Positions 12,797-34,015 of a stretch of DNA of 64,000 bases are shown piece by piece; positions within the stretch are counted from its first letter, which is position 1; every line of letters begins with the position of its first letter. Made by a program: the position numbers and the translations under genes. This DNA comes from Alphaproteobacteria bacterium. GTDB taxonomy: Bacteria; Pseudomonadota; Alphaproteobacteria; CACIAM-22H2. The DNA is taken from positions 46,296 to 110,295 of the forward strand of contig JAFKFM010000010.1 of assembly GCA_017308135.1 (NCBI GenBank). The letters are read 5' to 3'. The notes below the pieces were generated by a model. That model made no database searches. It was not told the DNA's origin and saw only the letters and a program-made list of their open reading frames with translations.

Positions 12797-12810
12797 TTGA
12801 TGCAGGTCAA
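12797..12810. promoter_or_regulatory. FNR/FixK-type box TTGATGCAGGTCAA (TTGAT-N4-GTCAA)
   Basis: 9/10 match to the TTGAT-N4-ATCAA consensus. Centred ~65 bp upstream of the usp start at 12738, in the divergent usp / CPA2 promoter region. Confidence 0.45.
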
Positions 12811-12833
12811 TGAATGCGACGCTTGTTCGTCTA

Positions 12834-12848
12834 CGTTGACGGTCAACG
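12834..12848. promoter_or_regulatory. 15-bp palindrome CGTTGAC-g-GTCAACG
   Basis: Perfect 7-bp arms seen in sequence, 24 bp downstream of the FNR-like box in the same intergenic region. Confidence 0.3.
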
Positions 12849-13063
12849 CCAATTCGCAGTGAGGTGGCGGTTAAAGAGTTTCCCGTCTTCGTGATGTAGA
12901 AAAATATCGATATGACAAGCTCAAATCGGTCATTTGACATCCGTATCGAAAGCCCTTGCAGCCAGAAAACAGGGCATTTTCGCCAACTAAACCTCGGGAC
13001 GGCGTTTGCGGCGCAACTACGCAAACACCATCCGAGATATGGGTATGTCTCGGGTTTTCACGG

Positions 13064-14773: not shown

Positions 14774-14807
14774 CGATGAAGAATTCCCAGAGTGGAGGCG
14801 CGCTGAT

Positions 14808-17432
14808 ATGAAACTCACCGATCCCCATGCGCGCGACGTCGAAACCTGCTTCGCGGCGTTCGCATCCGGCCCCGGCGGTCTGACGGCGGATGAAGCGGCA
14901 AGGCGGTTGGCCGAACATGGCCCCAACCGGCTGCCGCCGGCATCTTCGCGCGGGCCTCTTCTGCGCTTTCTGATCCAGTTTCACAACGTTCTGATCTACG
15001 TGCTGCTGGCGGCGGCGGCGGTGACGGCTGCTATGCAGCACTGGATCGATACCGGCGTCATCCTTGCGGTGGTCTTGGCCAATGCGATGATCGGATTCAT
15101 CCAAGAGGGTAAGGCCGAAGCGGCGATGGCCGCGATCCGGGACATGTTGGCGCCCCATGCGGCCGTGCTGCGCGATGGGCGGCGCATGACGATCGACGGT
15201 GCCGAACTCGTGCCGGGCGACATCGTCATTCTCGATGCCGGCGACAAGGTACCGGCGGATCTTCGCATCGTCGAGGCGCGCGGCTTGGCGGCGCAAGAGG
15301 CGGTTCTGACGGGCGAGTCCGTGCCCGTCGAAAAGTCTGTGGACGTCGCACGGCCGGATGCAGCGCTCGGCGATCGGCGATCGATGCTTTGGTCGGGCAC
15401 ACTGATCACGAGCGGTACGGCGCGCGGCTTGGCGGTGGCGACCGGGCGCGACACGGAAATCGGCCGTATCGGCGGTTTGTTGGAAGGCGTCGAACAATTG
15501 ACCACGCCGCTCGTCGCGCAGATGGACCACTTCGCGCGATGGCTGTCGTTTTTGATCCTTCTCGCGGCTGCTCTGCTGCTGGTCTATGGGTACTTCGTCG
15601 GGCATCACGACTTCTCCGAGTTGTTCATGGCTGTCGTTGGCCTCTCGGTCGCGGCAATCCCGGAGGGGCTCCCGGCCGTGATGACCATCACGCTGGCGAT
15701 CGGCGTGCAGGCGATGGCGCGCCGGCATGCCATCGTGAGACGGCTTCCCGCCATCGAGGCGATCGGCTCGGTCTCGGTCATCTGCACCGACAAGACCGGG
15801 ACGCTGACCCGCAACGAGATGACCGTCGCCGCCGCCGAGACGGCGGATGGTTCATTCGCCGTAACGGGCGAGGGATACGCGCCGTCGGGAACGATCGCTC
15901 CGGCCGGCGATCTGACGCGGCTGGCGCGCGCCGCGGCGCTTTGCAACGACGCCGAGCTTCATAGCGACGGCGCGCACTGGACCGTCGAAGGCGATCCAAT
16001 GGAAGGTGCGCTGCTGGCTTTCGCGGCGAAAGCGGGTGTCGTCCGCGACGGACGCCGATTGGACGCCGTTCCGTTCGATAGCCGTCACCGGTTCATGGCC
16101 GTTCTGACGGAGACCGCCGGCGAGCGTGTAACCTGTGTGAAGGGCGCTCCCGAGCGGGTCCTTGGAATGTGTGCTGGTATCGACGCTGGGCGATGGCAAG
16201 ATCGGGCCGACGCGATGGCGCGTCGTGGATTGCGGGTCCTCGCTTTCGCCGAGCGTGCCGAGGCGGGCGCGAATATCGATCACCTCGCGCTGGAAGGCGG
16301 CTCGACGTTCATCGGGCTCGTCGGATTGATAGACCCGCCGCGCCCCGAGGCGATCGCTGCGGTCGCCGAATGCCGTGCCGCCGGCATCCGTGTCAAGATG
16401 ATCACCGGCGATCATGCCGGTACGGCGGCGGCGATCGCCGCGCAGATCGGTTTGGAAAACCCGTCCCGCGTGTTAACGGGCGCCGATTTGGACAAGCTCG
16501 ACGATGCGCAATTGGCGCTCGAGGTTGCGAGCGCGGACGTTTTCGCGCGCACCAGTCCCGAACATAAACTGCGCCTGGTGACGGCGTTGCAGGCGCGCGG
16601 CCTGTCGGTGGCGATGACGGGCGACGGCGTGAACGACGCTCCGGCGCTGAAACGGGCCGACGCGGGAATCGCGATGGGGCTCAAAGGATCGGAAGCCGCC
16701 AAGGAAGCCGCCGATCTAGTGCTCGCCGACGACAACTTCGCGTCCATCGCGGCGGCGGTGCGCGAAGGCCGCACGGTGTGGGACAATCTCAAAAAGGTGA
16801 TCAGCTGGACGCTGCCGACCAACGCCGGCGAAGCCATGGTTATTGTGCTCGCCTTGTTGCTTGGCTTGGCCCTGCCCGTGACGGCGGTGCAGATCCTGTG
16901 GATCAACTTGATCACGGCGGTCACTCTCGGACTAGCGCTGGCGTTCGAGCCAACGGAACCCGGCACGATGGCGCGTCCGCCGCGCGCGCGGGATGCGCCG
17001 ATTCTAAGCGGTGAGCTGGTCTGGCATGTCGTTCTGGTCGCGGGCCTGTTTCTGGCGGCGGTGTTCGGCGTGTTCAGATACGCGATCGATCGCGGTTATC
17101 CGATCGAACTCGCGCAGACGATGGCGATGAACACACTGGTCGTCCTCGAAATCTACCATCTCTTCTTCATCCGCAACATTCACGGCGCGTCGCTGACCTG
17201 GGCGGCGGCGAAGGGAACGAAGGTCGTTTGGACGGTCGTCGTCGCGATCACGGCGGCGCAGTTCGCGGTGACCTATCTGGCGCCGTTGCAGGCCGTGTTC
17301 GGCACGCGGGCGGTCCCCGCGGGAGACGGCATTCTGATCGTCGCGATCGGCGCCGCGTTCTTCGTGGCGGTGGAGATCGAGAAGCAGATCCGGCTTGGGC
17401 TCGGCGCGCGGTTCGTCGGCAGGATTCCATGA
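14808..17432 (+). CDS. Cation-transporting P-type ATPase, P2-type (Ca2+/Mg2+/Na+-like)
   Basis: DKTGTLT phosphorylation motif, TGES, PEGLP (M4), MTGDGVNDAPAL hinge. GGAGG RBS at 14794. Start at MKLTDPHARD. Confidence 0.9.
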   Translation: MKLTDPHARDVETCFAAFASGPGGLTADEAARRLAEHGPNRLPPASSRGPLLRFLIQFHNVLIYVLLAAAAVTAAMQHWIDTGVILAVVLANAMIGFIQEGKAEAAMAAIRDMLAPHAAVLRDGRRMTIDGAELVPGDIVILDAGDKVPADLRIVEARGLAAQEAVLTGESVPVEKSVDVARPDAALGDRRSMLWSGTLITSGTARGLAVATGRDTEIGRIGGLLEGVEQLTTPLVAQMDHFARWLSFLILLAAALLLVYGYFVGHHDFSELFMAVVGLSVAAIPEGLPAVMTITLAIGVQAMARRHAIVRRLPAIEAIGSVSVICTDKTGTLTRNEMTVAAAETADGSFAVTGEGYAPSGTIAPAGDLTRLARAAALCNDAELHSDGAHWTVEGDPMEGALLAFAAKAGVVRDGRRLDAVPFDSRHRFMAVLTETAGERVTCVKGAPERVLGMCAGIDAGRWQDRADAMARRGLRVLAFAERAEAGANIDHLALEGGSTFIGLVGLIDPPRPEAIAAVAECRAAGIRVKMITGDHAGTAAAIAAQIGLENPSRVLTGADLDKLDDAQLALEVASADVFARTSPEHKLRLVTALQARGLSVAMTGDGVNDAPALKRADAGIAMGLKGSEAAKEAADLVLADDNFASIAAAVREGRTVWDNLKKVISWTLPTNAGEAMVIVLALLLGLALPVTAVQILWINLITAVTLGLALAFEPTEPGTMARPPRARDAPILSGELVWHVVLVAGLFLAAVFGVFRYAIDRGYPIELAQTMAMNTLVVLEIYHLFFIRNIHGASLTWAAAKGTKVVWTVVVAITAAQFAVTYLAPLQAVFGTRAVPAGDGILIVAIGAAFFVAVEIEKQIRLGLGARFVGRIP

Positions 17433-18356: not shown

Positions 18357-18535
18357 TTTTCCACAATAGGCCTCAAAATGCTTCGATATCGTGGAAAACA
18401 TTGTTGATATTTAATGATTTTACACGGTCTGGGGGACTGGGGGTCGTGGGTTCGAATCCCGCCGCTCCGACCATCACGTGAGAGACGAAGAAGCCCGCCC
18501 TGGGAAACCAGCGGCGGGCTTCGGCATTCTGCATC
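18357..18535 (+). repeat. Dispersed element copy 2: 5' box, AT-rich spacer, tRNA-like module 18424..18473 (ACGGTCTGGGGGACTGGGGGTCGTGGGTTCGAATCCCGCCGCTCCGACCA), terminator hairpin
   Basis: The 50-nt module and the 40-nt hairpin region are identical to copies 3 and 4. Lies between convergent genes. Confidence 0.85.
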
Positions 18536-18607: not shown

Positions 18608-18925
18608 TCAAGGAACCACCAAAGACAGCAATGGGGCGTATTGTTGCGCGCCGAAGATATCGCCGTCCCCTGGAGACCCCGACGGTCTTTCCCGCAACAT
18701 TGTGAACTTAATCGCGAATGCCGGATCGAACGCGACGAAGTCGGTGATCCGGGCTTCGTCGATCCCAAACAGTGCCGCGACGCTTGGCCGGGTCAGCACG
18801 TTCGATTGGAGGACGCGCCGATAGTTATCGCGATCGGTGAAAATGATATCGAACGTGATCTTGTCCGTCCCCGCGTTCTTGGAGCGGATCGTCTTGGCGA
18901 GGCTGGAAAGGGTCGTGGACGACAT
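18608..18925 (-). CDS. DUF4387-family small protein (usual partner of AtuA/DUF1446)
   Basis: 105 aa, IRSKNAGTDKITFDIIF...GAQQYAPLLSLVVP pattern, directly downstream of the DUF1446 gene. Confidence 0.6.
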   Translation of the reverse strand: MSSTTLSSLAKTIRSKNAGTDKITFDIIFTDRDNYRRVLQSNVLTRPSVAALFGIDEARITDFVAFDPAFAIKFTMLRERPSGSPGDGDIFGAQQYAPLLSLVVP

Positions 18926-18940
18926 TGTTGATCTCCGCTT

Positions 18941-20293
18941 TCAGGGGCCGACCGTCGCGATGTGACAGGGAAAAAGCTCCAGCGGATCGTCGACGGCAAC
19001 CGTGTGGTTGAGAGTCCAGCGATAAGCGGCGCTGGCCCGCAACACCTCGTCGAGCGCGAAGGCCACGGAACCGGCGGTTCCCTTCACATCGGGCAGCCGG
19101 GCATAGAACATCTGGCGCGTGCCCGTCATGCAGACTTCCTCGGCCATCTCGGCCGTCGGCGCGATACCCTGGACCATGACGGCGAGCTCGTGGGCGGGCT
19201 TGTCGCGGTCCGGATCCATCGTGCCCATCACGCCGTCACGCCCATATACCGTGTAGTGCAGCTCATGGTTCGCATTGCCGAAGCGTTCGCGCGCTTGCTG
19301 GCGGGCCCATTCGATGACTTTGTCGACATTGGCGATCGTGTAAGGGTCGCGAATTCCGACGATCCCCACATATCGTTCGCCGATCTTCCCCGCGCCCTCG
19401 AGCTTGACGCGCACGCGCGCCGCCGGCTCGAACTGTGGCCCGGTTACGCGCGTCGTCTTGGGGCCAACCTGTTCGTAGTGGCAAGCACTCATGTCCAAAC
19501 GGCCGCCCGCGACATACTCGTAGAACGGGTTGGATCGCTCGTACATCGCGTGCCCGGCGACCGATGCCACCGTGCAGCGCTGCTCCGGATGCATCGCGGT
19601 GACGCGTACCGCGTCGTCGGTGATCTCGCCCAGAACCGTTTCCTTGCCGCCATAGGGTTCGGCGCAGAACGAGGCGCATTCCAGCACTTTGCCGAGATAG
19701 TAGGATAGCGCCTCCGGATATCCGGCCCGGATCGCAGGCGCCGCGAAGATCGCGCAATCGCTCGAGCGTCCGCCGATGATCACATCGGCGCCCATGTCGA
19801 GCAGTTTGATGAACGGATGGACCCCGGCCATCGCCACCACGCGCTCCGTCGCGTCGAGTTCCGCTTCCGTCAGATTCTCGCGCGCATCCAGGCCGGTGAC
19901 CGGATCGTCCGAGCGCATTTTTCCGCGCAGCCACTCCTTATCCACCTCGGAATAGAAGTATCCGAGTTTGAAAGGCGCGAGTTGGTGCTTGCGCGCCAGC
20001 TCCCGGATGATCCGGACATACATATCCACGCGGCTGTTCGTGCCCGTGTCGCCCGCCGATCCGATGATCATCGGGACGCCCTTGCGCCGCGCGGCGAGCA
20101 ACATCAATTCGAGATCGTGGGTCTGCCAGGCGAGCGGGCTGGTCGAGGTGTCCGAACCGAGCGGTCCCGGCCCCACATCGTCGCTGCCCGAGTCGGCGGC
20201 GATGATATCCGGATCCGCTTCCACGCCGATCGCGAAGCTCGCGGTCTTCGAGGGTGCGAAACCGAGATGTCCATTCGGGCATATGACCTTCAT
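18941..20293 (-). CDS. AtuA-like protein (DUF1446 family), function unknown
   Basis: ~450 aa. Family assignment comes from overall sequence character and conserved synteny with DUF4387. Start taken at MKVICPNGHLGF. Confidence 0.6.
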   Translation of the reverse strand: MKVICPNGHLGFAPSKTASFAIGVEADPDIIAADSGSDDVGPGPLGSDTSTSPLAWQTHDLELMLLAARRKGVPMIIGSAGDTGTNSRVDMYVRIIRELARKHQLAPFKLGYFYSEVDKEWLRGKMRSDDPVTGLDARENLTEAELDATERVVAMAGVHPFIKLLDMGADVIIGGRSSDCAIFAAPAIRAGYPEALSYYLGKVLECASFCAEPYGGKETVLGEITDDAVRVTAMHPEQRCTVASVAGHAMYERSNPFYEYVAGGRLDMSACHYEQVGPKTTRVTGPQFEPAARVRVKLEGAGKIGERYVGIVGIRDPYTIANVDKVIEWARQQARERFGNANHELHYTVYGRDGVMGTMDPDRDKPAHELAVMVQGIAPTAEMAEEVCMTGTRQMFYARLPDVKGTAGSVAFALDEVLRASAAYRWTLNHTVAVDDPLELFPCHIATVGP

Positions 20294-20315
20294 CGAGCGT
20301 GACACGACTGCCTCC

Positions 20316-21350
20316 TCAAGCTTTATCGATGTTCCCGGCATCGGTGAGGCCGAGCCGCTTCATTTGGTGGCGTAGAGCGTGGCGGGTCAGGCGCAGCGAA
20401 GCCGCCGCCCGCGCGACATTGCCGCCCGCGTTCTCCAGCGCCTGCCGGACAAGTTCGCGCTGAAATTGCTGGCTGGCGGCGTGGAAATTGACGGGTGCGT
20501 CGGCGCGCAAACCGGGCATCGCGATGCCTTCGGCCTCCGGCGTCGAAAGCCCCGTCCGCGGCGTCCTGACGTCACGCAGAACGCGGGCTGGAATGTGGCT
20601 CAGTTCGATCCGATCGGCCTCTTCGAGGGCCACGATCCGCTCGAGAAGGTTCTCGAGTTCGCGCACATTGCCGGGCCACCGATAGGCGGTGAAAAGCGCC
20701 TCCACCTCAGCCGAGATCGCCATGGGTGAGCGCTCGTAACGGACACATAGTTCCGCAAGGAAGTGCCGGGCCAGATAGACGATGTCGGCCCCACGCTCGC
20801 GCAGCGGCGGCAGGTTGATCGCGATCACCTGCAGCCGGTAGTAGAGATCCTCGCGGAACCGCCCTTCGCGCACTTCGGCGAACAAGATCCGGTTCGTGGC
20901 GGCTATGAAGCGCACATCGACCGTGATGGGCGCGACCGACCCGATCCGGCGGAATCGCTGCGTATCCATCAAGGTAAGGAGTTTCGCCTGCAGGACCGGA
21001 CTCAACTCGCGAATTTCGTCGAGGAACAGCGTGCCGCCATCGGCCGCCTCGACGAGCCCGATCTTCTTCGTCGTCGCACCTGTGAAGGCGCCGCGCTCGA
21101 AGCCGAACAGCTCGGACTCAACTAGTTCCGCAGGCATCGCGGCGCAATTGATGTCGACGAAGGGCGCACCCGCCCGATTCGACTCTTCGTGAATCGCCCG
21201 GGCGACCAGGCCTTTGCCCGTCCCCGTTTCGCCATAGATCAGAATGGTCCGGGCAGGGCTCCGAGCCGCCTTCCCGATGAGACGCCGCGCATCTTCGATG
21301 GCTGGATGCCGGCCGAGGATCTGTCGGAGCGCAGGAATACTCGGCTTCAT
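20316..21350 (-). CDS. Sigma54-dependent transcriptional activator (EBP) lacking an N-terminal sensory/receiver domain (PspF-like architecture)
   Basis: Walker A GETGTGKG, GAFTGA sigma54-contact motif, Walker B, R-finger, C-terminal Fis-type HTH. Only ~30 aa precede the AAA+ core when the start is taken at MKPSIPALRQ. Confidence 0.85.
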   Translation of the reverse strand: MKPSIPALRQILGRHPAIEDARRLIGKAARSPARTILIYGETGTGKGLVARAIHEESNRAGAPFVDINCAAMPAELVESELFGFERGAFTGATTKKIGLVEAADGGTLFLDEIRELSPVLQAKLLTLMDTQRFRRIGSVAPITVDVRFIAATNRILFAEVREGRFREDLYYRLQVIAINLPPLRERGADIVYLARHFLAELCVRYERSPMAISAEVEALFTAYRWPGNVRELENLLERIVALEEADRIELSHIPARVLRDVRTPRTGLSTPEAEGIAMPGLRADAPVNFHAASQQFQRELVRQALENAGGNVARAAASLRLTRHALRHQMKRLGLTDAGNIDKA

Positions 21351-22432
21351 ACGCGTGCCTCGCGCGTCAACGTACGAAGATCCGCGACTTCTCTTGGCGA
21401 TTGGCAGGGCGCGCCTCGGGAGAACAGAATTGCTAGGTCGATCGTCCGGTAAACGACGGTCGATACGGTATGGGATCCGTCTTCCCCGCCGTGACGGCAA
21501 AGTCCCTCACGCCGCTCGTCGCCATGATCGGCCATCGCGCGCATGATCGTTTCGGGCTCATCCGGGGCGCCCCCGGCGCCGAGCATCGCGCCCAGCGTTT
21601 CGCGCCGTCCAAGAGTCGATCTGAGCGCGGCGGGCGAAAGACGGGAGCGAACGGTGTCCGGATTCTCGCACCAGAAATGATTGCTGCGGAAGGCGGGCGC
21701 ATGCCGCGAGATTCGCGCGCCGTCATGGAGCAGTTCGACCACCGCCACGTCGCCGCTTGCATCGGCTAGGATCAGACTGCCGCCGCCAGCATGGCGTAAG
21801 GCTGCGATCGTTGCGCAGACTTCCTCCACGTTACTGCAGGAATTCAAAAGCCGCGTCATGAGGAAATAGCGAAGCCAGCCGATGCCGTGCGTTGGCGCTT
21901 GGATCGACGTGTCGGCCAGCGCAAGTCCGGCCGCATTCATCCCGGATGAATAAGCGCCCGGCGCTCCCAGTGTTCCCACGCAGAAGAAGGGGCCTCCGGC
22001 AGACTTTGGATCGACATGGAGGAACGTTTCCTGCCCGTCGCGGTGCGGACCGGAGAGGTCCCGGTTCTTGGCCAGCACCGCGCCGCCGGCGGGGGACGGC
22101 CGCGCCCACGCCGAACACCCGTCGGTCTCGTGGATCCCCGAAAGGTTTGACAGGTGAAACAGCGCGAACACCTGGTCTTCGTCGATGCGGAAGCCTTCGC
22201 AAATGCCCCGCATCTCCGCAAGCTCTGGCGCGGCGTGCTCTTCGGCGAACGCCCGTTGTTGCGCGAGGTAGCGTCGCGCCGATACGGTCTCGAGCACCGA
22301 GCGGGCGGCGGAATGGCGTTGCGCCACGGTCGAAGCCACGGCCGCTGCATCGACACCGTGCAAGCGCGACTGGGCAAGCCCCCGCGTATAGGCATCGCCG
22401 GTCAAGACGCGTGGATGCAGAGGTTTCGTCAT
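21347..22432 (-). CDS. C45-family Ntn-hydrolase (acyl-CoA:6-aminopenicillanic-acid acyltransferase / linear-amide hydrolase-like)
   Basis: ETDGCSAWA region fits the autoproteolytic N-terminal-nucleophile Cys of the AAT/C45 family; 361 aa. Confidence 0.65.
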   Translation of the reverse strand: MTKPLHPRVLTGDAYTRGLAQSRLHGVDAAAVASTVAQRHSAARSVLETVSARRYLAQQRAFAEEHAAPELAEMRGICEGFRIDEDQVFALFHLSNLSGIHETDGCSAWARPSPAGGAVLAKNRDLSGPHRDGQETFLHVDPKSAGGPFFCVGTLGAPGAYSSGMNAAGLALADTSIQAPTHGIGWLRYFLMTRLLNSCSNVEEVCATIAALRHAGGGSLILADASGDVAVVELLHDGARISRHAPAFRSNHFWCENPDTVRSRLSPAALRSTLGRRETLGAMLGAGGAPDEPETIMRAMADHGDERREGLCRHGGEDGSHTVSTVVYRTIDLAILFSRGAPCQSPREVADLRTLTREARV

Positions 22433-23430
22433 GGTGTCTGTCCGTGCAGATGGCAGGCGACGTTATGTCCGGGCCCCATGTTCGTGATCGACGGCGCCTG
22501 CGTCGCGCAGATCGGCATCGCGTTCGGACACCGCGTATGGAATCGGCAGCCGGACGGCGGGGAAAGCGGTGAGGGAAGGTCGCCCGTCAGCCGCAGCCGC
22601 TCGGTGGTATCGCCCCTCTTCAGACGGGGTGCGGCGGCGATCAATGCCCGCGTGTAGGGGTGTGCGGGCGATCCGAGGATGGCGTCGCGCGGACCGATTT
22701 CGACGATCTCGCCGAGATACATCACCGCGATCCTGTCGGCGAGGCGTCCCACAACCGCGAGGTCGTGACTGATGAACAGATAGGTGAGGCCGAACTCCTG
22801 CCGGAATCCGAGGAGAAGCTCGAGAATCTGCGCCTGGACCGACACGTCGAGCGCCGATACCGGCTCGTCGCACACGACGAATTCAGGCTTGAGGATCAAC
22901 GCGCGGGCGATCCCGATGCGCTGCCGCTGACCGCCGGAGAATTGGTGCGGATAACGGCGCAGATGGTCGGGCGAGAGCCCGACCTTCGGCAGAAATGACG
23001 CTGCTCGTTGTTCCGCCTCGCGCGACTTCGCGCCCTCGTGCAGCCGGATGGGCAAGCCCACAATCTCGCCGACCGAGCGACGCGGGTTGAGCGAAGCGTA
23101 GGGGTCCTGGAAAATGATCTGCATGCGGCGCCGATACGGCCGGAATACCTCGTCCGGCATCCGCGAGATCGAAACGCCGTCAAACGTCACTTCTCCCGCG
23201 TCGGCCCTATGCAGGTTGAGTACGGTGCGCCCGAGCGTCGACTTGCCGCAACCGGACTCCCCGATCAAACCCAGAGTCTCGCCGCGTGCGATGGAGAAGC
23301 TGACTCCGCTCAAGGCACGAACCAATACCGGCGGACGGCGTGCGATCCGCTCCAGCAAGGGGGTGGCGAGCGGGAAGGCTTTCGTCACCGACGCCGCGGT
23401 CAACAGTGGGGCATTCGCGACCTCAGACAT
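22429..23430 (-). CDS. Peptide/nickel-type ABC transporter ATP-binding protein (DppF/OppF-like)
   Basis: GESGCGKST Walker [16 protein letters not shown] signature, and the C-terminal oligopeptide-ABC extension with HPYTR. Confidence 0.9.
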
Positions 23431-24418
23431 TGCCGATCTCCAATGCCCGCAGGCACCGCGACTGGCGGTCGTCGTTCGGCCGCGCGAGAGCGACGGGAAC
23501 GCGACAGGTTTCCAGCGCCATGTCGCAGCGATCGAGGAATCGGCAATGTGCCGGCAGGCTCGTCGCTGCCGGAACCTGCCCCGGAATTGGACGGATGGGT
23601 TGGTCCAGCGTGTCGAGGCTGGGCATCGACCGCAGTAATCCTCGGGTGTACGGATGCATCGGCCGGTCGATCACCGCCGCCGTCCGTCCTTGTTCCACGA
23701 CCTGTCCGGCATACATCACCATCACGCGGTCGGCCTGCTCGGCGACCACGCCGAGATCGTGGGTGATGAGGATGACGCTCATTCCCAGTTCGGCGCGAAG
23801 ATCCCGGATCAGATCCAGCACCTGGGCCTGGATCGTCACGTCGAGCGCGGTTGTCGGCTCGTCGGCGATCAATAGGCGCGGACGGCAGGCGAGCGCCGTG
23901 GCGATCATGATGCGTTGGCGCATACCCCCAGAGAACTGGTGGGGGTAATCGTCGAGCCGCGCCGCGGCGGCCGGAATGCCGACAAGCCGCAGCATGTCGA
24001 TCGCCTTGCTGCGCGCCTCATCCGTCGAGCGTGCGCGCCCGTGGGCGAGCATCACCTCTGTGATCTGCGTGGCGACGGTAAAGCCGGGATTCAGCGCGGT
24101 CAGCGCATCCTGCATCGTGATCGCGATGTCTCGTCCGCGGATCGCACGTCGCTGTCCTTCGTCGAGCGACAGAAGGTCGACGCCGTCGAACCGGAGCATT
24201 CGCGCCACGACGCGGCCCGGCGGCCGGACGAGACCAAGCACGCTGAGAAAGGTGACGCTCTTCCCCGATCCCGATTCGCCGACAACACCGAGGCATTCGC
24301 CGGCGTGGACCGTCAGCGACACGTCGTCGACTGCTTCGACGAGACCGGCGCGGGTCGGGAAGGTCGTCCGCAGACCCTCGACGACGAGCAGCGGGCTCCG
24401 GTCGGGCGTCCCGTTCAT
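23423..24418 (-). CDS. Peptide/nickel-type ABC transporter ATP-binding protein (DppD/OppD-like)
   Basis: [10 protein letters not shown] Walker [16 protein letters not shown] signature. Start taken at [16 protein letters not shown]. Confidence 0.9.
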
Positions 24419-25302
24419 TCCTGGATCCTTGGATCGAAGGAGTCGCGCAGCGCTTGGCTGACCACATTGATCGCCATGACCAGCAGCAGGATCGCGATGC
24501 CGGGAAATGTCGATACCCACCACGCGTCGATCAGAAACTCGCGCCCGTCTGCCACCATCGATCCCCAGGAGGCCGTCGGCGGCTGCACGCCAAGTCCCAA
24601 AAAGGAAAGACTGGCTTCCAGAATGATCACGTGAGCGACGCGCACCGTGGCGACGACGACGACGGGCGACACGATGTTGGGCAGGATCTCACGCAGCATG
24701 ATGTGCGCGCGCGACGCGCCGAGCGACTTCGCGGCTTCGACATATTCGATCTCGCGTGCCGCCAGCGTCTCGCCGCGAACGATGCGGCATGGAACGACCC
24801 ATTCCTTGTAGACGAGCGCCAGCACGATGTTCTGCAAGCCCGGGCCCATCATCGCCATCAGGCCGATGGCGAAGATGAGATAGGGGAAGCCCAGCAGGAT
24901 ATTGACGACGCCCGAAATAAGGGTATCGACCCAGCCGCGCAGGTAGCCGGCGGCCAAACCGGCGACAATTCCGGTTATCGTCGCGATCAGTACCACGATC
25001 GCGCCGACGAGAATCGATACGCGTGCACCGTAGATCAACCGCGATAGGATATCCCGCCCCAGCGCGTCGCACCCCAGGGGAAATGCCCATTCTCCCCCCA
25101 GCCACGCCGGCGGCTGGAGACGACGAAACAAATCGGCTTCACCGGGATCATGCGGCGCGATCCACGGCGCGAACGCCGCGGCGAACACGAACAGCAGCGT
25201 GATGCCGGCGGCCCACAGCGCAAGATGATTCTCGCGGAAGCGGGCGACTCCGAGTTGCAGCGGAGATTCCGCGTCGCGGGCGAGGACGGCGCCAGCGCTC
25301 AC
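24415..25302 (-). CDS. Peptide/nickel-type ABC transporter permease (DppC-like)
   Basis: GTG start at 25302 overlaps the dppB stop (GTGA) and is preceded by a GAGGG RBS. 296-aa polytopic permease. Confidence 0.8.
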   Translation of the reverse strand: MSAGAVLARDAESPLQLGVARFRENHLALWAAGITLLFVFAAAFAPWIAPHDPGEADLFRRLQPPAWLGGEWAFPLGCDALGRDILSRLIYGARVSILVGAIVVLIATITGIVAGLAAGYLRGWVDTLISGVVNILLGFPYLIFAIGLMAMMGPGLQNIVLALVYKEWVVPCRIVRGETLAAREIEYVEAAKSLGASRAHIMLREILPNIVSPVVVVATVRVAHVIILEASLSFLGLGVQPPTASWGSMVADGREFLIDAWWVSTFPGIAILLLVMAINVVSQALRDSFDPRIQE

Positions 25303-26306
25303 AACCGGACCCTCGGGTTGAGCTTGGTGTAGAGCAGATCCGCGAGGAAGTTCAGCATCACATAGGTCACCGCATAGAGCAGCACGGCGGCCTGAACGAG
25401 CGGATAGTTGCGGCTGAAGATGGCCTCGACGACGAGCCGCCCCAAGCCGGGCCACCCGAAAACCGTTTCGACGATCATGTTGCCGCCGAGTAGCGATCCG
25501 GTCTCAAGCGCCGCGACCGTCACTGTCGGGATCAACGCGTTTTTCAGAGCGTGCCGGCCGATGACCCGCGCGCGGCTCAGTCCCTTCGCCTCGGCGAACA
25601 AGACGTAATCCGACCGGAGCACCTCGATCATCGAGGAGCGGGTCACGCGCATGAGCACGGCGGCCATCGGCAGCGCGAGCGTCACGGCGGGAAGCGCGAT
25701 ATGTCGTAGCGCCTGCCAAAAGCTATCGAATCGCCCCGCTAACAGCGCGTCGGGCAGAAGCATCCCGGTTATCGCGGGTACCTCGCTCGCGTAACCGATG
25801 CGGCCCGCCACGGGGAACCATCCCAGCTTCACCGAGAATAGAAGGATCAGCAGAATTCCGAACCAGAATCCCGGCATCGAGACACCGAAGAGCGAGGACA
25901 CGGTCGCCAGCCGGTCGAGCCAGGAGTTCTTCCGGACCGCCGCAAGAACACCGAGCGGGATCGCGATGACGAGCGACAAGACGAGGGCCGCGAGGGTCAA
26001 CTCGATCGTCGCCGGAAGCCTTTCTCCGATCACCTCAATCACCGGCCGGCGATGAAAGAACGACAGTCCGAACTCGCCGCGTGCCGCATTTCCGATGAAC
26101 AGCACGAACCGCTCGTGGAGTGGACGGTCCAGTCCCATGTCGTGGCGCAGCGCGGCTTCCTGTTCGGGCGAGGAGCGCGAGTCACCAAGCATGATCTGCA
26201 CCGGGTCGCCGGGCGTGAGCGTGATCATCAGGAAGACGATCACGCTCACACCGAGCAGAACCGGAACGAGGCCGATCAGTCGCTCGACCAGTCGCGCCAT
26301 TCGCAT
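25299..26306 (-). CDS. Peptide/nickel-type ABC transporter permease (DppB-like)
   Basis: 335 aa. N-terminal MRMARLVERLIGLVPVLLGVSVIVFLMITLTPGDP is typical of DppB/OppB. Confidence 0.9.
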   Translation of the reverse strand: MRMARLVERLIGLVPVLLGVSVIVFLMITLTPGDPVQIMLGDSRSSPEQEAALRHDMGLDRPLHERFVLFIGNAARGEFGLSFFHRRPVIEVIGERLPATIELTLAALVLSLVIAIPLGVLAAVRKNSWLDRLATVSSLFGVSMPGFWFGILLILLFSVKLGWFPVAGRIGYASEVPAITGMLLPDALLAGRFDSFWQALRHIALPAVTLALPMAAVLMRVTRSSMIEVLRSDYVLFAEAKGLSRARVIGRHALKNALIPTVTVAALETGSLLGGNMIVETVFGWPGLGRLVVEAIFSRNYPLVQAAVLLYAVTYVMLNFLADLLYTKLNPRVRL

Positions 26307-26336
26307 CGAAGTGAACCCGCCTTTCGAAGCGCCGCG

Positions 26337-27914
26337 TTAGTCGACGCTCGCGTCATGCAGGTTGATGCGCGAATCGGCCGAAGGCGACCAGCCCTTCAGG
26401 CGCTTCGAAACGCCGTAGAGATCCTGCGGCAGCCACAGGAAAATCCACGGCGCCTGCGCGTTCACGATCACTTGCGCCTCCTTGTACATATCCGCCCGCT
26501 TGGCGGGGTCGGCTTCCGTTTCGGCCGCGTCGAGCAACGTATCCACCCTCGCGTTCGAGAAGCCGGCATAGTTTCCGCGCCCTTTGGTGCGCAGCGTCGG
26601 GACCATGATGTCCGAGGGGTCGAGCGCCCCGTTGCCCCACGAGGTCAGATAGGCGTCACGCTCCGCGCGTTTGTCGGCGGTAGCCCACATCGGCGAGATT
26701 ACGGCGCCTTCCCACACCTGAACTTTGGCCCTGATATTCGAGCGGCCCATAAGTGCTGCGATCGCTTCGGCCGTCGATTTGAACGCGCCGGTCGTGTCGA
26801 TGGTGAACTCGATGCCGTTCGGATAGCCCGCTTCGGCAAGCAGCTTCTTCGCCTGTTCGGGATCGTATTTGTACTCGGGCAACGCGCTGTTGAAAGCGAA
26901 CGCGTCGGGGCTCATGACGCCGTTGAGCGCGGTCGCCTTGCCCTCGAGAATCCGGTCGATGATGAGCTTGCGGTCGACCGCGTGATTGAGCGCCTTGCGA
27001 ACGCGCGGGTCGTCGAACGGCTTGCGCGCCATGTTCAGCGCCACAAAGAACGTGCGGGTGCCGTTCACGGCCATGACTTTTGCACGGTCGCTCGCCTCGA
27101 CCTGCCGGATCGACGAAGCCGGCAACTCGTTGATGATGTCGACTTCGCCGGCCAGCAGCGCCGCGACGCGCGACGCGTTCTCCGGGATGATTTTGAAGAT
27201 GACGCGATCCGGCTTCGCGGGGCCGACGGGCGGAATCGCCGACGAACCGCCATAGTAGTTCGGATCGCGCGCCATGATGATGGAATCACCGCGGCGCCAT
27301 TCCACCAGCTTGTACGGGCCGGGGCAGTCGACGCTCGTCGCCAGCGCGGCATCGCCGACCTTCTTCGCGTGTGCCTCGGAGACCATCTCCTGGAACGGCA
27401 GCATGGCCGGCAGGATCGCCCACGGCGCCGACAGCTTCAGGCGCAGGGTCCGCGCATCGACGATTTCGGTATCCGACAATGGCCCAAGCAGGCTTTGGCG
27501 CGGGCTGGTCTGGCCGCCCATGGCGTTCGGCTTGGTGAGCCGATCCAGGTTGAACTTCACGTCCGATGCCGTGAAGGGCGCGCCGGAGTGGGATTTCACA
27601 CCCTCGCGGATTTTGAACTCCCAAGTCTTTTCGTCGATCTGCCGGTAGGACTCGGCAATTTCTGGAACGACCTTCATCGCCGCGTCGCGGGTCAGCAGAC
27701 CGTCGCACATATTGCGAATGATGGTCTCCGTTTCCCTGTTGCGATGATTGGCCGGATCCAGCGTCTGCGCGTCCTGGCTGAAACCGACGCGAATTTCTCC
27801 GCCGGCATGGGCTCCGCCAGCGGCCGCGATCGTTGCGATACCAATGCCGCCGAGGAGCATCATCATCGGCTTCAGCGCAGTGGCATGCTTTGTCTTGTGA
27901 TGTGCGACAGCCAT
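26337..27914 (-). CDS. ABC substrate-binding protein, family 5 (DppA/OppA-like)
   Basis: Start at MAVAHHKTKHATALKPMMMLLGG (cat at 27912-27914), preceded by an AGGGAGGC RBS. Signal peptide, ~525 aa family-5 SBP. Confidence 0.85.
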   Translation of the reverse strand: MAVAHHKTKHATALKPMMMLLGGIGIATIAAAGGAHAGGEIRVGFSQDAQTLDPANHRNRETETIIRNMCDGLLTRDAAMKVVPEIAESYRQIDEKTWEFKIREGVKSHSGAPFTASDVKFNLDRLTKPNAMGGQTSPRQSLLGPLSDTEIVDARTLRLKLSAPWAILPAMLPFQEMVSEAHAKKVGDAALATSVDCPGPYKLVEWRRGDSIIMARDPNYYGGSSAIPPVGPAKPDRVIFKIIPENASRVAALLAGEVDIINELPASSIRQVEASDRAKVMAVNGTRTFFVALNMARKPFDDPRVRKALNHAVDRKLIIDRILEGKATALNGVMSPDAFAFNSALPEYKYDPEQAKKLLAEAGYPNGIEFTIDTTGAFKSTAEAIAALMGRSNIRAKVQVWEGAVISPMWATADKRAERDAYLTSWGNGALDPSDIMVPTLRTKGRGNYAGFSNARVDTLLDAAETEADPAKRADMYKEAQVIVNAQAPWIFLWLPQDLYGVSKRLKGWSPSADSRINLHDASVD

Positions 27915-27972
27915 CTTTGTGCCTCCCTGTTTGACGAATGTGTTGCCGACCCTGTGTCTCGGCCTCGACAAT

Positions 27973-27988
27973 CGCAAGCGCTGTGCCA
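27973..27988 (-). promoter_or_regulatory. Sigma54 (RpoN) promoter: TGGCAC-agcgc-TTGCG on minus strand
   Basis: The minus-strand reading gives the canonical -24 GG / -12 GC elements with the correct 5-nt spacing, ~60-75 nt upstream of the dppA start. The operon it drives encodes its own EBP. Confidence 0.6.
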
Positions 27989-28058
27989 TCGCTGTGTTGG
28001 GGAATAAACGTTGAATTCCAAATAATTGATCAATCTTGATCGCAACATTCTTCTTCTT

Positions 28059-28098
28059 TTGCGTGATATTCACGCGGATTTGCGTGAGATTAGCGCAA
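28059..28098. promoter_or_regulatory. Candidate EBP upstream activator sites: TTGCGTGA-tat-TCACGC palindrome plus second TTGCGTGAGATTAGCGCAA
   Basis: Two TTGCGTGA half-sites and inverted partners lie 70-110 bp upstream of the sigma54 -24/-12 element. This is the usual geometry for EBP binding. Confidence 0.4.
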
Positions 28099-28564
28099 TA
28101 GATGAGAGCCGTCGCCCAGCTTATCGGACCTCGATGTTGCTATCCCACAGCGCGCAGTTGCCAGAGCCGCGTTGGGGCAGAACGATCGGCAATAGTGCCT
28201 TCTGTCAGCGCCAATAGGACAGTCTGAGTATTTTGCGAGATGGCAGGTTTTGGGCTCATCGTAGCCTTTGAAAGGAACGAGGATGAGACCCGTGAGGTGA
28301 ACGCCGCCGAACGGCATGGCCGTGCGTTCCGCCGAAGTTCAAGATGGACTCGTCGGAAGAGAATATCCGAACAGAGATCTCGGTTTCGCGCGGCAAGCAT
28401 CAAATTGCGAAGCTGCGCCGGCAGTCAAGCAATGCGCCGGAGAAGTTTCCCAGGCGACGAAAAAAAGGAATGCTGAGCTAGGCGTAAACTTCGCGAAGGT
28501 CTCGGAGGACAGAATCCGGCGGGCGCTAGTGTCGCCCGCCGGTTCCGAGTTTTATGCGCCGTCT

Positions 28565-28774
28565 TCAGCCGCCGAAACCGAAGCCGGGCGGCATGTCGGT
28601 CAGTTCGATGCCGAAGGGCTTCAGGCTGTCCAGGATCCAGGTCTGGTTGTTGCCGATGCGGCGATTGTATTCGGCCCAAGCCGACACGAAGCTTTTGAAA
28701 ACTTCGTCGCCCTTATAGTTTACCGCGATCACCGAGGGCGTCGAAAGCTCGTCCGTGGTGACCTGCCTCGACGG
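28565..28774 (-). pseudogene. Orphan C-terminal gene remnant (...VIAVNYKGDEVFKSFVSAWAEYNRRIGNNQTWILDSLKPFGIELTDMPPGFGFGG*) followed by GC hairpin 28515..28541
   Basis: Genome-typical GC3-rich codon usage over ~60 codons with no ATG. Its frame is bounded by stops and it abuts the truncated tctA on the opposite strand. Confidence 0.25.
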
Positions 28775-30101
28775 CTACAAGCTCGCGCGCCAGGGCAGGG
28801 CGGGGGCTGCCTTGGCGATCGCGGCTCTTGCTTCGCTGTTTGCGGGAGTTGTCGCCACGCTGTTCATTGCCTTGTTCGCCCCGCCGCTTGCCCAACTCGC
28901 TTTGCTGTTCGGACCGGCGGAATATTTCTCGCTGATGGTATTGGGCCTCATCGCCGCGATCGTGTTGGCCCAAGGCTCGATCCCCAAGTCGCTGGCGATG
29001 ATCGTGCTCGGCCTGCTGCTTTCGGCCGTCGGCACCGATCTCAATTCCGGCGTGCCACGCAGGACGTTCGGTCTCACGGAGCTGATCGACGGCATCAATT
29101 TCGTTCCGTTGGCGATGGGTATTTTCGCGGTTGGCGAAATCATCTGCAATCTCGAGAAGCCGGAACAGCGCAGCGTGTTCTCCAGCAGAATTTCCGGATT
29201 GTGGCTGACGCGCGAGGATTTCCGCCGCTGCTGGCCCGCGACCTTGCGCGGCACCGCGCTGGGCTCTGCCTTGGGCTTATTGCCGGGCGGCGGCACAATG
29301 CTTAGCTTCTTCGCCGCCTACGCGGTTGAAAAACGCCTGTCGCGCACGCCCGAGCAGTTCGGCGAAGGCGCCGTCGAAGGTGTGGCCGCACCCGAAGCGG
29401 CGAACAACGCCGGTGCGCAGACCTCGTTCATTCCGTTGCTGACGCTGGGCATTCCCTCGAATGCCGTCATCGCGCTCATGGCGGGTGCGATGATGATCCA
29501 GGGCATCCAGCCCGGTCCGCAGATCATGGCCAAGAACCCCGAACTGTTATGGGGCGTGGTCGCATCGATGCTGATCGGCAACGTGATGCTGGTCATCATC
29601 AATCTGCCGCTGATCCGCATCTGGGTGACACTGTTGCGTATTCCATACCACTATCTCTATCCCGCGATCCTGGTGTTCTGCTGCATCGGCGTCTACACGG
29701 TGAATCGCGCGGTCTTCGACGTGGTGTTGTTGCTGGTGTTCGGAGTGTTCGGCTATCTGTTTCAGAAGCTGAAGTTCGAACCTGCGCCGCTGTTGCTCGC
29801 TTTCGTGCTCGGGCCGCTGATGGAGGAAAGCCTGCGCCGCGCCATGGTGATCTCACGCGGCGATCCGACCGTTTTCGTCAGCCGCCCCATCAGCGCCAAG
29901 CTGTTGGCGGTCGCGGCGGTGCTCCTGGTTTTGGTGCTGCTGCCGCTTTCCGCCGCACGCGCGCGACCGCGTTTCAGGAGAACGTGTGAAAGGAAGGGGG
30001 TCGCGTTAAGGCTCGTTCCAACATTGCTGATCAACGGTTCCGATGAAATAGAGCCCCGGTTTTCAATCGGGCCTCTTTGTCGGGTAGGAAAGTTCGCATA
30101 G
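28716..30101 (+). pseudogene. tctA: 5'-truncated tctA (tripartite tricarboxylate transporter large permease), ~90 N-terminal residues missing, no tctB/tctC nearby
   Basis: The reading frame opens only after a TAG at 28716. The product aligns to TctA from the conserved ...SSVVTCLDGY(K/Q)(L/M)ARQGRAG block onward. No upstream frame contains the TctA N-terminus. Confidence 0.6.
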
Positions 30102-32998: not shown

Positions 32999-34015
32999 TC
33001 AGGCCGTTCGCGCGGCGCGCGGTTGCGCCGCTTCGATCGCTTCGAAATGGTGGCAGGCGACTTGATGGCCGTCGCCCGCCAAGCGCAGCCCCGGGCGTTC
33101 GGCGGCGCATCGCGCATCGGCGAACCGGCACCGCGTGCGGAAATGGCAGCCGCTCGGCGGATTATGCGGATCGGGTAATTCGCCGCTGCCCAGGCGCTGG
33201 CTGCCGAAAGGTTCGCGCATCGACGCGACCGTCACGAGGCGTCGCGTATAGGGATGCAAAGGACGGCCGAGCACGGAATCGGCGGAGCCGATTTCGACCA
33301 TGCGGCCGAAATACATGACGCCGACGGATGTGCTGATGTGATTCACGATCGCCAGATCGTGACCGATGAACAGATAGGTGAGGCCGAGCCGCGCCTGCAT
33401 CTCGACCAGAAGATTGAGGATCTGCGCGCGGATCGACACGTCGAGCGCCGAAACGGGCTCGTCCAGCACCAGCAGGCGCGGATTGACCGAAATGGCGCGT
33501 GCGATGGCGACGCGTTGGCGCTGCCCGCCGCTGAATTGGTGCGGGTAACGCGCGCCCGCTTCGCGGGCGAGGCCGACGGATTCGAGCAGACGCGGCACGG
33601 CGGCATCGATCGCGGCTTGCGTCTCGCCTTGGGCGCGCATCGGCTCGCCCACGATGTCGCGCACGCGCAAGCGCGGGCTCAGCGCGCCGTAGGGGTCCTG
33701 CAAGACCGCTTGAACCATGCGGCGATTGGCGGCGCGTTCGCGCGCATCGTGCGCCGCGATATCGCGGCCGGCGATTTCGATGGTGCCGCCGCTGGGCTTC
33801 TCCAGCTTCAACATCATATTGGCGACGGTCGTCTTGCCGCTCCCGGATTCCCCGACCAGCCCGAATGTCGTGCCGGCGGGAATATCGAACGATACGTCGT
33901 CGACGGCGACGACCGGCCGCGTGGCGCCGAACAAGCCGAGGCCGCGCGCCTGGAACTGTTTGGTCAGGCCGCGCACGCGCACGAGCGGCATGGCGATTGT
34001 CGTCTCGCCGCTCAT
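32999..34015 (-). CDS. Peptide/nickel-type ABC ATP-binding protein (DppF-like)
   Basis: [31 protein letters not shown]. Start at MSGETTIAMPLVRVRGL. The 610-aa track ORF 32999..34831 is a fusion artefact running across two genes. Confidence 0.9.
   Translation of the reverse strand: MSGETTIAMPLVRVRGLTKQFQARGLGLFGATRPVVAVDDVSFDIPAGTTFGLVGESGSGKTTVANMMLKLEKPSGGTIEIAGRDIAAHDARERAANRRMVQAVLQDPYGALSPRLRVRDIVGEPMRAQGETQAAIDAAVPRLLESVGLAREAGARYPHQFSGGQRQRVAIARAISVNPRLLVLDEPVSALDVSIRAQILNLLVEMQARLGLTYLFIGHDLAIVNHISTSVGVMYFGRMVEIGSADSVLGRPLHPYTRRLVTVASMREPFGSQRLGSGELPDPHNPPSGCHFRTRCRFADARCAAERPGLRLAGDGHQVACHHFEAIEAAQPRAARTA

Follow-up and report, generated by a model that had tools for sequence, protein, structure and literature searches.

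The window, as we call the whole 64,000-nucleotide stretch of DNA that was analyzed (contig JAFKFM010000010.1 of the alphaproteobacterial genome assembly GCA_017308135.1), carries on its minus strand a nine-gene operon that spans positions 28097 to 18490. The gene order is dppABCDF, a gene for a C45-family hydrolase, a gene for an enhancer-binding protein (EBP), an AtuA/DUF1446 gene and a DUF4387 gene. This locus is an uncharacterized and widely distributed sigma-54 regulon, centered on a lyase of the CmlAB family and on an EBP that lacks a sensor domain. We think it likely that it is a sigma-54-dependent catabolic operon, in which the EBP acts at upstream dyads to switch on a pathway that leads from the importer, through the C45 hydrolase, to the CmlAB-family lyase. 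The genes, and the probable end of the operon, are as follows:

26337–27914, minus strand: dppA-like periplasmic solute-binding protein, 525 aa, with a signal peptide (Pfam SBP_bac_5, 4.3e-82); 30-nt gap to dppB
25299–26306, minus strand: dppB-like permease (Pfam BPD_transp_1 and BPD_transp_1_N); 4-nt GTGA overlap with dppC
24415–25302, minus strand: dppC-like permease (Pfam OppC_N and BPD_transp_1); ATGA overlap with dppD
23423–24418, minus strand: dppD-like ATPase (Pfam ABC_tran and oligo_HPY); 8-nt overlap with dppF
22429–23430, minus strand: dppF-like ATPase (Pfam ABC_tran and oligo_HPY); 4-nt overlap with the C45 gene
21347–22432, minus strand: C45-family autoproteolytic Cys N-terminal nucleophile (Ntn) amidohydrolase/acyltransferase, 361 aa (Pfam AAT, 1.8e-15); ATGA overlap with the EBP gene
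20316–21350, minus strand: EBP without a sensor domain, 344 aa (Pfam Sigma54_activat, 3.5e-65, with AAA_lid_14 and HTH_8); 22-nt gap to the AtuA-like gene
18941–20293, minus strand: CmlA-like large subunit (AtuA/DUF1446), 450 aa (Pfam AtuA, 4.2e-23); 15-nt gap to the DUF4387 gene
18608–18925, minus strand: CmlB-like small subunit (DUF4387), 105 aa (Pfam DUF4387, 1.5e-34)
18490–18522, minus strand: probably the terminator of the operon, a GC-rich hairpin with UUCGUCUCU after it (folding energy −34.4 kcal/mol, z = −3.3 relative to shuffles)

Across the operon, successive genes either overlap by 4–8 nt or are separated by gaps of 15–30 nt. On the coding strand, a simple scan for sigma-70 promoters and terminators detected neither a promoter nor a convincing terminator inside the operon; the hairpin at 18490–18522 is also missed by a simple terminator scan, its T run being too weak. 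The dppA gene starts with the ATG at 27914, with a GGGAGG ribosome-binding site at 27922–27927. The GTG at which we start dppC, overlapping the dppB stop, was picked from the sequence. All nine family assignments pass the curated Pfam cut-offs; NCBIfam has no model for either the AtuA-like or the DUF4387 protein. An earlier note on this DNA had described nine genes joined by 4-nt overlaps or short gaps and had named all nine families, a description that is borne out; the hidden Markov model searches that it had proposed for DUF1446, DUF4387 and AAT support each of these assignments, and so does the NCBIfam model C45_proenzyme. Its coordinates needed only small corrections: the promoter begins at 27974 rather than 27973, and the most likely start of the AtuA-like gene is M17 (20293), hence there is no overlap with the EBP gene.

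Four elements upstream of dppA bear upon how the operon is transcribed:

27974–27988, minus strand: sigma-54 −24/−12 promoter, TGGCAC-AGCGC-TTGC (TGGCACAGCGCTTGC), the sole exact match to TGGCAC-N5-TTGC in the window
28019–28031, minus strand: site resembling that for integration host factor (IHF), GATCAATTATTTG, one mismatch to WATCAANNNNTTR, in the AT-rich spacer between dyads and promoter; its function is presumed
28060–28076, minus strand: putative proximal enhancer dyad (upstream activating sequence 1, UAS-1), CGCGTGAATATCACGCA, whose GCGTGA-N3-TCACGC core is perfect and which lies 88 nt upstream of the −24 element
28081–28097, minus strand: putative distal enhancer dyad (UAS-2), TGCGCTAATCTCACGCA, located 109 nt upstream of the −24 element and in agreement with TGCGTG-N5-CACGCA at 10 of 12 positions

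The promoter has the GG and GC doublets ten bases apart within TGGCAC-N5-TTGC, upstream of a gene, that identify a sigma-54 promoter, and the GC of its −12 element is placed 60 nt upstream of the dppA ATG. The exact motif occurs once on the two strands of the 64 kb, as against an expectation of 0.13, and at least one match is present in 13 of 100 shuffled windows. A second near-promoter, TGGAACTGGCGTTGC at 37186–37200 (minus strand), has one mismatch and lies inside a TIM-barrel isomerase-like coding region, so it is read as chance. Direct and inverted repeat analysis delimits the dyads as two 18-nt repeats with starts 21 nt apart, TTTGCGTGATATTCACGC (28058–28075) and TTTGCGTGAGATTAGCGC (28079–28096), each of which holds a dyad of the form GCGTGA-N3-TCACGC. 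Only eight sites on both strands of the 64-kb window match the IHF consensus with one mismatch.

To place these elements in a wider context, we scanned with the CmlA-like protein, taking one genome per species, and obtained 80 loci: here the protein is 69–90% identical, and its hosts are Alpha-, Beta-, Gamma- and Deltaproteobacteria and Firmicutes such as Moorella and Desulfallas. The nearest relatives (83–90%) belong to Beijerinckiaceae and Rhizobiales genomes; the exact C45 protein of the window was found in only one public read-set assembly. The full order dppABCDF-C45-EBP-cmlA-cmlB is kept in about 30 alphaproteobacterial loci, plus 4–5 loci that are truncated by contig ends, the carriers being Beijerinckiaceae, Microvirga, Alsobacter, Paenochrobactrum, many Rhodobacterales, and Rhodospirillales; independent database gene calls give the same nine genes in Prosthecomicrobium and other genomes. 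The EBP is spread over Alpha- and Betaproteobacteria, with one gammaproteobacterial locus, on a contig that starts inside the EBP gene. Partial versions also occur: EBP-cmlAB without dpp or C45 is present in Polaromonas, in an uncultured Burkholderiales bacterium and on Cupriavidus plasmids, and Devosia has C45-cmlAB without an EBP. No description of the nine-gene combination was found in the literature that was searched, and each component belongs to a known family.

The regulatory elements are conserved along with the genes. A sigma-54 element occupies the corresponding place before dppA in nearly all of the full orthologous clusters, across several families, and a second such element is found in the gap between the EBP gene and cmlA wherever that gap is 140–300 nt long; the distance from this second element to the cmlA start is 62–72 nt in most loci and reaches about 99 nt in a few. 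The window, five of its closest relatives and Prosthecomicrobium have an EBP-cmlA gap of only 22–57 nt. Because that short gap holds no second promoter, the lyase genes would appear to have been fused into the upstream transcript in the window clade, the promoter having been lost as the gap shrank (to 22 nt in the window). Inclusion of the AtuA/DUF4387 genes in the one transcript is peculiar to this clade; in most relatives the pair has a sigma-54 promoter of its own.

Another observation to emerge from this comparison is that a dyad close to TGCGTG-N5-CACGCA recurs upstream of both sets of promoters, those of dppA and those of cmlA. The best score reaches at least 9 of 12 positions in 26 of 28 dppA regions and 27 of 29 cmlA regions, as against 11.6% of controls (random 170-nt windows from the same loci); at a threshold of at least 10 of 12, the values are 13 of 28, 14 of 29 and 2.7%, respectively. 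The dyads are mostly paired, with the two sites 19–21 nt apart. In Cupriavidus sp. KK10, the EBP-cmlA gap contains three dyads and a sigma-54 promoter, and the region before the EBP gene contains neither.

A gene for sigma-54 itself, rpoN, adjoins the operon in 11 loci (9 Rhodobacterales and Paenochrobactrum), that is, in about a third of the clusters. In the nine Rhodobacterales loci it stands directly upstream of dppA on the same strand (those listed with rpoN upstream of dppA are L023, L025, L032, L034, L040, L041, L046, L047, L051 and L087–L089 in our numbering); in Paenochrobactrum (L012/L013, 380–1780, minus strand) a full-length rpoN is divergent and upstream. There is no rpoN gene within the 64-kb window. 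Both sigma-54 promoters of the rpoN-linked Rhodobacterales loci have GTGCATA or GCGCATA at −12 in place of TTGC, a variation that suggests a specialized sigma-54 paralog. Because of these promoter, dyad, EBP-cmlA and rpoN linkage results taken together, we regard sigma-54 dependence, with control by the encoded EBP through the dyads, as a well-supported reading of the sequence comparisons. The earlier note had likewise proposed a sigma-54-driven operon, with a −24/−12 element some 60 nt before dppA and repeats farther upstream: the element is indeed the unique exact match, at 60 nt, with its counterparts before dppA in nearly all full clusters, and the repeats prove to be tandem dyads, for which recurrence in orthologous loci supports the role of enhancer.

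The EBP comprises an AAA+ core with GAFTGA, a lid, and a C-terminal Fis-type helix-turn-helix (HTH_8); its sequence contains GETGTGKG (Walker A), DEIRE, ERGAFTGA and REDLYYRL, in accord with the Walker A and B motifs, GAFTGA loop and arginine fingers that characterize an EBP. The protein has about 10 residues before its Sigma54_activat match; it is colinear with the full-length PspF model (positions 3–335 of 336) and aligns without insertions to NtrC4 and NifA from the points at which their AAA+ cores begin. All 33 aligned EBP orthologs start no more than 10 residues before the core, the 120 homologs listed for a Rhodobacterales ortholog are all of 321–346 aa, and independent database gene calls place the EBP at 326–346 aa in Prosthecomicrobium and other genomes. 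Absence of a sensor domain, as claimed in the earlier note, is therefore a property that these orthologs and homologs share, and the hidden sensory extension that would have contradicted it was sought and not found: the sole upstream in-frame start, a TTG at 21500, would overlap the C45 gene by 150 nt, and the added residues are Arg-rich out-of-frame sequence that is absent from the orthologs.

Bearing in mind that PspF is restrained through a patch at which PspA docks (Y51, L52 and W56; PMC3791423), we mapped these positions onto the EBP, anchoring the alignment on the conserved H50, R55, F60 and I61 in the PspF alignment range. They correspond to E55, E56 and A60. Because the YLW patch is replaced in this way, PspA-type control of the EBP is not expected from its sequence; the protein's score against the PspF equivalog model, 261.6 bits, is also below the cut-off of 443.55. 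Nor did any of about 45 loci, examined at the locus only, contain a conserved extra gene that could supply a dedicated negative partner of the PspA or HrpV kind.

The EBP is closely tied to the lyase genes. Orthologs on Cupriavidus and Ciceribacter megaplasmids (57–58% identity) are all directly upstream of cmlA, and the next best EBPs are at most 46.5% identical; three homologs that were chosen by sequence alone all lie between C45 and AtuA genes. Given the HTH of the EBP and the tandem dyads conserved upstream of both promoters, we consider the latter its putative cognate sites. In Alphaproteobacteria, the sigma-54-driven dpp transcript has the EBP gene as its last; this gene thus stands inside the operon that it would activate, so induction would be self-reinforcing. 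In three betaproteobacterial loci (Cupriavidus sp. KK10, Polaromonas and the uncultured Burkholderiales bacterium) the EBP gene stands alone, and the region before it contains no dyads; no sigma-54 promoter was found there in Cupriavidus sp. KK10 or Polaromonas, and only a weak 8/10 match in the uncultured Burkholderiales bacterium. Because these betaproteobacterial EBP genes have no convincing sigma-54 promoter or dyads, control of the EBP by its abundance alone cannot be general, to judge from these upstream regions. The autoregulation that the earlier note had envisaged accordingly holds in part: location of the EBP gene inside the operon is general in the alphaproteobacterial clusters, and does not extend to the three betaproteobacterial loci.

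The AtuA-like protein aligns with PDB 9ERQ_A, ‘citramalate lyase subunit A’, at E = 8.5e-75 (residues 14–466 versus 2–451; 32% identity to CmlA over 447 aligned residues), and the DUF4387 protein aligns with 9ERQ_B, ‘citramalate lyase subunit B’, at E = 6e-23. The large subunits share the motifs D-GS-D-GP..LG, GGR..D.A.FAA, GK.LECA, H..YE.S.P and G.RDP, and conserved positions fall within them. The entries 9ERQ and 9EVF label this pair of families as the citramalate lyase cmlA/cmlB of Raoultella planticola, which supersedes the view in the earlier note that DUF1446 and DUF4387 have no established function. The Raoultella enzyme has been used as a lyase that converts citramalate to pyruvate and acetate (bioRxiv 10.64898/2026.01.16.699985), and in Enterobacteriaceae a DUF1446 gene lies downstream of the gene for methylaspartate ammonia-lyase (PMC4682846). 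By homology, then, the window pair is a member of the CmlAB family. Its own ortholog group is 69–90% identical across Proteobacteria and Firmicutes, as against 31–33% for the enterobacterial CmlA type. In two loci (L059 and L070, at about 8150–15450) there are two tandem cmlA-like copies; the second copy in L059 is followed by genes for an acyl-CoA dehydrogenase, a family III CoA-transferase and an electron transfer flavoprotein (ETF)-ubiquinone oxidoreductase. No paper linking DUF1446/DUF4387 to sigma-54 was found in the literature searched.

The earlier note's assignment of the hydrolase to the C45/AAT family, with a Cys nucleophile, is upheld by model scores, conservation and predicted structure. 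The protein scores 57.7 bits against Pfam AAT (cut-off 23.2) and 140.6 bits against NCBIfam C45_proenzyme (cut-off 85). Gly105-Cys106 is the predicted site of autoproteolytic cleavage, with Cys106 as nucleophile; C106 is invariant in 34 homologs, D104 and G105 are at least 90% conserved, and DGC[ST] is present in 31 of 32 orthologs. A search of PDB sequences with this protein gave no match, a gap that was closed by a predicted structure: the AlphaFold model (34 homologs, pLDDT 93.7) has as its best Foldseek match in the PDB isopenicillin N acyltransferase, 2X1C (TM 0.76, E = 9e-20), and next NAAA, acid ceramidase, penicillin V acylase and bile salt hydrolases. Together, these model-based matches define the Cys-Ntn hydrolase superfamily, and the modeled fold is its alpha-beta-beta-alpha Ntn arrangement.

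With a family-5 binding protein, two permeases and two ATPases that have the oligo_HPY tail, the first five genes have the composition of a Dpp/Opp-type (PepT) importer. The nearest solved relatives of its binding protein are 5U4O (an unnamed solute-binding protein), then GsiB/YliB 1UQW, 8UPI (an unnamed peptide solute-binding protein) and HbpA 3M8U; among these, the nearest with a known ligand are the glutathione binders GsiB/YliB and HbpA. None of the equivalog cut-offs for DppA, OppA, GsiB and NikA is reached, the best score being 202.5 bits for GsiB against a cut-off of 594. A paralogous second set of Dpp/Opp-type ABC transporter genes occupies 33000–36000 (minus strand), about 5 kb from the operon; its ATPase genes and the ATPase genes of the orthologous loci cross-match at 66–74% nucleotide identity.

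The company that the lyase keeps in other lineages is informative as to its substrate. Its orthologs stand beside TctC receptors in Betaproteobacteria (in Paenalcaligenes, beside tctDE-tctCBA), beside a LysR regulator and an Fe3+-type ABC importer in Stellaceae, Hyphomicrobiales and a Terrarubrum plasmid, and, in Firmicutes, beside DctM-type permeases and sodium:solute symporters; a single Paenochrobactrum locus combines the two types of transporter. These neighborhoods support the suggestion that the lyase acts on a carboxylate, one that some bacteria import directly. In Desulfobacterales, an orthologous-looking Dpp importer is followed by a Peptidase_C26 gene (of the gamma-glutamyl-hydrolase type) in the slot of C45; Dpp and Peptidase_C26 genes lie near cmlAB on the opposite strand in Moorella, and Dpp, C26 and cmlAB are also together in Desulfallas. 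The loci with C26 for C45 are L035, L036, L043 (about 9200–9950), L054, L055, L057 and L063, and GntR/UTRA or RpiR regulators replace the EBP. Because two unrelated Cys-amidases, C45 and C26, fill the same slot, the gene content of the Dpp-containing versions supports release of the lyase substrate from an amide-linked precursor. Both C26 enzymes and the C45 prototype, acyl-CoA:isopenicillin N acyltransferase (IAT), cleave omega-amides of acidic amino acids; IAT acts on that of the delta-(L-alpha-aminoadipoyl) group in isopenicillin N. The functional link of importer, amidase and AtuA/DUF4387 pair that the earlier note had suggested is strengthened by this recurrence in three phyla, with C26 in place of C45 in some.

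Beyond the operon there is little that is shared. Nucleotide similarity between the window and its closest relatives ends at the operon ends, and because it stops there, the operon sits in different neighborhoods; this lack of synteny in the flanks suggests that the nine genes move as a unit. The interval 28100–30101, between the enhancer and the next gene, is gene debris: it includes a C-terminal fragment of about 60 aa from a binding-protein-like gene on the minus strand, which ends near 28566, and a tctA-like open reading frame at 28755–30101 (plus strand) that is missing about 100 N-terminal residues. We rejected this tctA-like frame as a functional partner, for it is short by that length and is not syntenic in relatives. 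Just past the terminator hairpin, 18424–18473 (plus strand) is the 3′ half of a tRNA gene (…GGTCGTGGGTTCGAATCCCGCCGCTCCGACCA, which resembles the 3′ end of tRNA-Pro), and may be a leftover attachment site of an integrative element; a scan of the whole window at Rfam gathering thresholds and with ARAGORN returned no matches and no complete tRNA. Downstream of the operon in related loci, the genes (polysaccharide export, DAO oxidase, acyl-CoA dehydrogenase, transposase and others) are unconserved and provide no clue to substrate. In a Rhodospirillales locus (L021, 10155–11513, minus strand), a DDE transposase gene directly follows the cmlB-like gene, which is consistent with a mobile cluster.

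From these data we put forward the following scheme. The sensor-less EBP would bind the two dyads (TGCGTG-N5-CACGCA, about two helical turns apart), some 90–110 nt upstream of the −24/−12 element, and, probably through looping assisted by IHF, would drive all nine genes as one transcript. The Dpp-type ABC importer would take up a peptide-like amide conjugate, as the proximity of its binding protein to glutathione-type binders might suggest; the C45 Cys-Ntn hydrolase would split the amide bond; and the CmlAB-family lyase would cleave the tertiary hydroxy-(di/tri)carboxylate thus released to a 2-oxo acid and acetate, by analogy with the conversion of citramalate to pyruvate and acetate. Citramalate, citrate and 3-hydroxy-3-methylglutarate would, by the same analogy, be candidate acids, to be cleaved to a 2- or 3-oxo acid plus acetate. 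That the imported compound is a gamma-glutamyl-like or acyl-amino-acid conjugate is a reasonable guess and no more, and it is by inference only that we arrive at the substrate identity, the order of steps, the role of IHF and the manner in which the EBP is switched.

Several points weigh against this scheme. No signal input to the EBP was found; a sensor-less loop that is purely self-activating would be uncontrolled, and the simple scan revealed no sigma-70 promoter that could prime it. The three-step pathway is deduced from co-location, because cmlAB mostly has its own promoter and often occurs without any amidase. The lyase substrate, too, may differ from citramalate, given the 32% identity and the absence of methylaspartate-pathway neighbors: neither methylaspartase nor glutamate mutase nor mesaconase is encoded in the window operon or in the orthologous loci that were mapped. 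The primary signal for the EBP must enter by a route other than self-reinforcement, for which the candidates are an action of the regulated enzymes upon the EBP, a ligand at its AAA+ core, or a dedicated RpoN.

Alternatively, dppABCDF-C45 and cmlAB could be two independent modules, a peptide importer/peptidase and an organic-acid lyase, that share a regulator, and their fusion into one transcript in the window clade an accident of gap loss. This we judge unlikely, even though cmlAB has its own sigma-54 promoter in most genomes, is found with TctC, Fe3+-type ABC, DctM or sodium:solute symporter carriers and no amidase, and accompanies the EBP without dpp or C45 on Cupriavidus plasmids and in Polaromonas: the same dyads are present at both promoters, so this is one regulon, and the combination of Dpp, a Cys-amidase and cmlAB is repeated across Alphaproteobacteria, Desulfobacterales and Firmicutes, with C26 as a substitute for C45. 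Moreover, Devosia retains the adjacency of C45 and cmlAB in a locus that has no EBP, and the Paenochrobactrum locus holds both types of transporter. We find it scarcely credible that the −24/−12 match is due to chance, the operon being read from an unrecognized sigma-70 promoter and the EBP acting elsewhere. Shuffled windows do yield an exact match in 13 of 100 cases, and the one-mismatch site at 37186–37200, being intragenic, is clearly a chance occurrence, but the position of the dppA element is conserved across several families and the element is duplicated, with dyads, before cmlA; in addition, rpoN is linked to the operon in 11 loci, and no sigma-70-like site was seen on the coding strand in the simple scan.

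It is also conceivable, though distinctly improbable in our estimation, that the AtuA/DUF4387 complex or the C45 hydrolase is itself the missing sensor, which gates the ATPase of the EBP according to substrate occupancy, in a manner comparable to RtcAB–RtcR or PspA–PspF; this could stand alongside the catabolic scheme rather than replace it. No EBP ortholog has a sensor, the EBP is found only next to cmlAB, and the stand-alone EBP genes of Cupriavidus sp. KK10 and Polaromonas have neither a sigma-54 promoter nor dyads, which implies that the activity of the EBP there, and not its amount alone, must be controlled. There is, besides, a precedent for operon enzymes that control their own EBP in RtcAB–RtcR (PMC9650030). 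On the other hand, cmlAB orthologs elsewhere are under LysR, GntR, RpiR or TctDE and are ordinary enzymes there; C45 is not a universal partner, being absent from loci that have only EBP-cmlAB; and the YLW patch to which PspA docks is replaced in the EBP by E55, E56 and A60.

Our preferred reading, a sigma-54-dependent catabolic operon, gives the newly characterized family of AtuA/DUF4387 CoA-independent C–C lyases a concrete and widely conserved genomic context, and points to a second, highly conserved lyase ortholog group (69–90% across phyla). It defines a compact regulon that is directly testable (two sigma-54 promoters, one dyad motif, one EBP), and experiments are feasible, as there are culturable carriers: Cupriavidus necator N-1, Microvirga, Paenochrobactrum and Ciceribacter. 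The EBP family is among the few without any sensor domain, which prompts one to ask how an activator of this type is controlled in a catabolic setting, and there is now a candidate function for the rpoN paralogs that adjoin the operon in Rhodobacterales. The locus gains in interest if the EBP is gated by its own enzymes, or if the operon is the regulon of RpoN4. In Cereibacter sphaeroides, one of four DNA-binding EBPs is without an N-terminal regulatory domain, and the same source states that information on that EBP and on RpoN4 is lacking (PMC11999139). The rpoN-linked Rhodobacterales operon is an obvious candidate for this orphan pair; look-ups for a link from our EBP to RSWS8N_04525 returned only metagenome contigs and other Rhodobacterales, and did not confirm that C. 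sphaeroides has the operon. A joint reading, which we hold to be doubtful, would combine these ideas: the EBP would join PspF and HrpRS as a third kind of sensor-less sigma-54 activator, dedicated to a catabolic lyase, gated by the CmlAB-like complex or by a metabolite at its AAA+ core, and served in Rhodobacterales by a private RpoN paralog and a variant −12 element (GTGCATA/GCGCATA). Were this true, RpoN4 and the domain-less EBP RSWS8N_04525 of C. sphaeroides could have their missing regulon in this operon, and the lyase would act on a substrate other than citramalate.

Among known systems, the EBP most resembles PspF of E. coli and HrpR/HrpS of Pseudomonas syringae, which likewise consist of an AAA+ core with GAFTGA and a C-terminal HTH, with nothing before the core. 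It differs from them in falling below the PspF cut-off, in having E/E/A at the docking patch and in having no PspA- or HrpV-like partner gene in the locus; furthermore, PspF and HrpRS serve stress or secretion systems, whereas this EBP would control a catabolic operon, and in some lineages is paired with a nearby rpoN. The lyase pair resembles CmlAB in that its genes are adjacent, belong to these two families and encode subunits that align over their full length, but is set apart by its association with an importer and an amidase, by sigma-54 control, by its separate ortholog group and by the lack of methylaspartate neighbors. AtuA of the acyclic terpene utilization (atu) cluster in Pseudomonas is in the same Pfam family (PF07287); in contrast to that cluster, the window and related loci have no atuB–H or atuR neighbors and do have a DUF4387 partner, and the family name AtuA is historical and uninformative with respect to this locus. 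The C45 protein has the fold and the Gly-Cys autoproteolytic/nucleophile position of IAT (MEROPS C45, 2X1C), but it is only about 14% identical to it, is bacterial, and is encoded outside an antibiotic cluster, in a slot that other phyla fill with C26. GsiABCD and Dpp-type importers of the PepT family have the five-component layout that we see in the window, where the binding protein is below their equivalog cut-offs. Finally, the arrangement of an upstream enhancer, a possible IHF site and a −24/−12 promoter is that of a classical sigma-54 catabolic operon.

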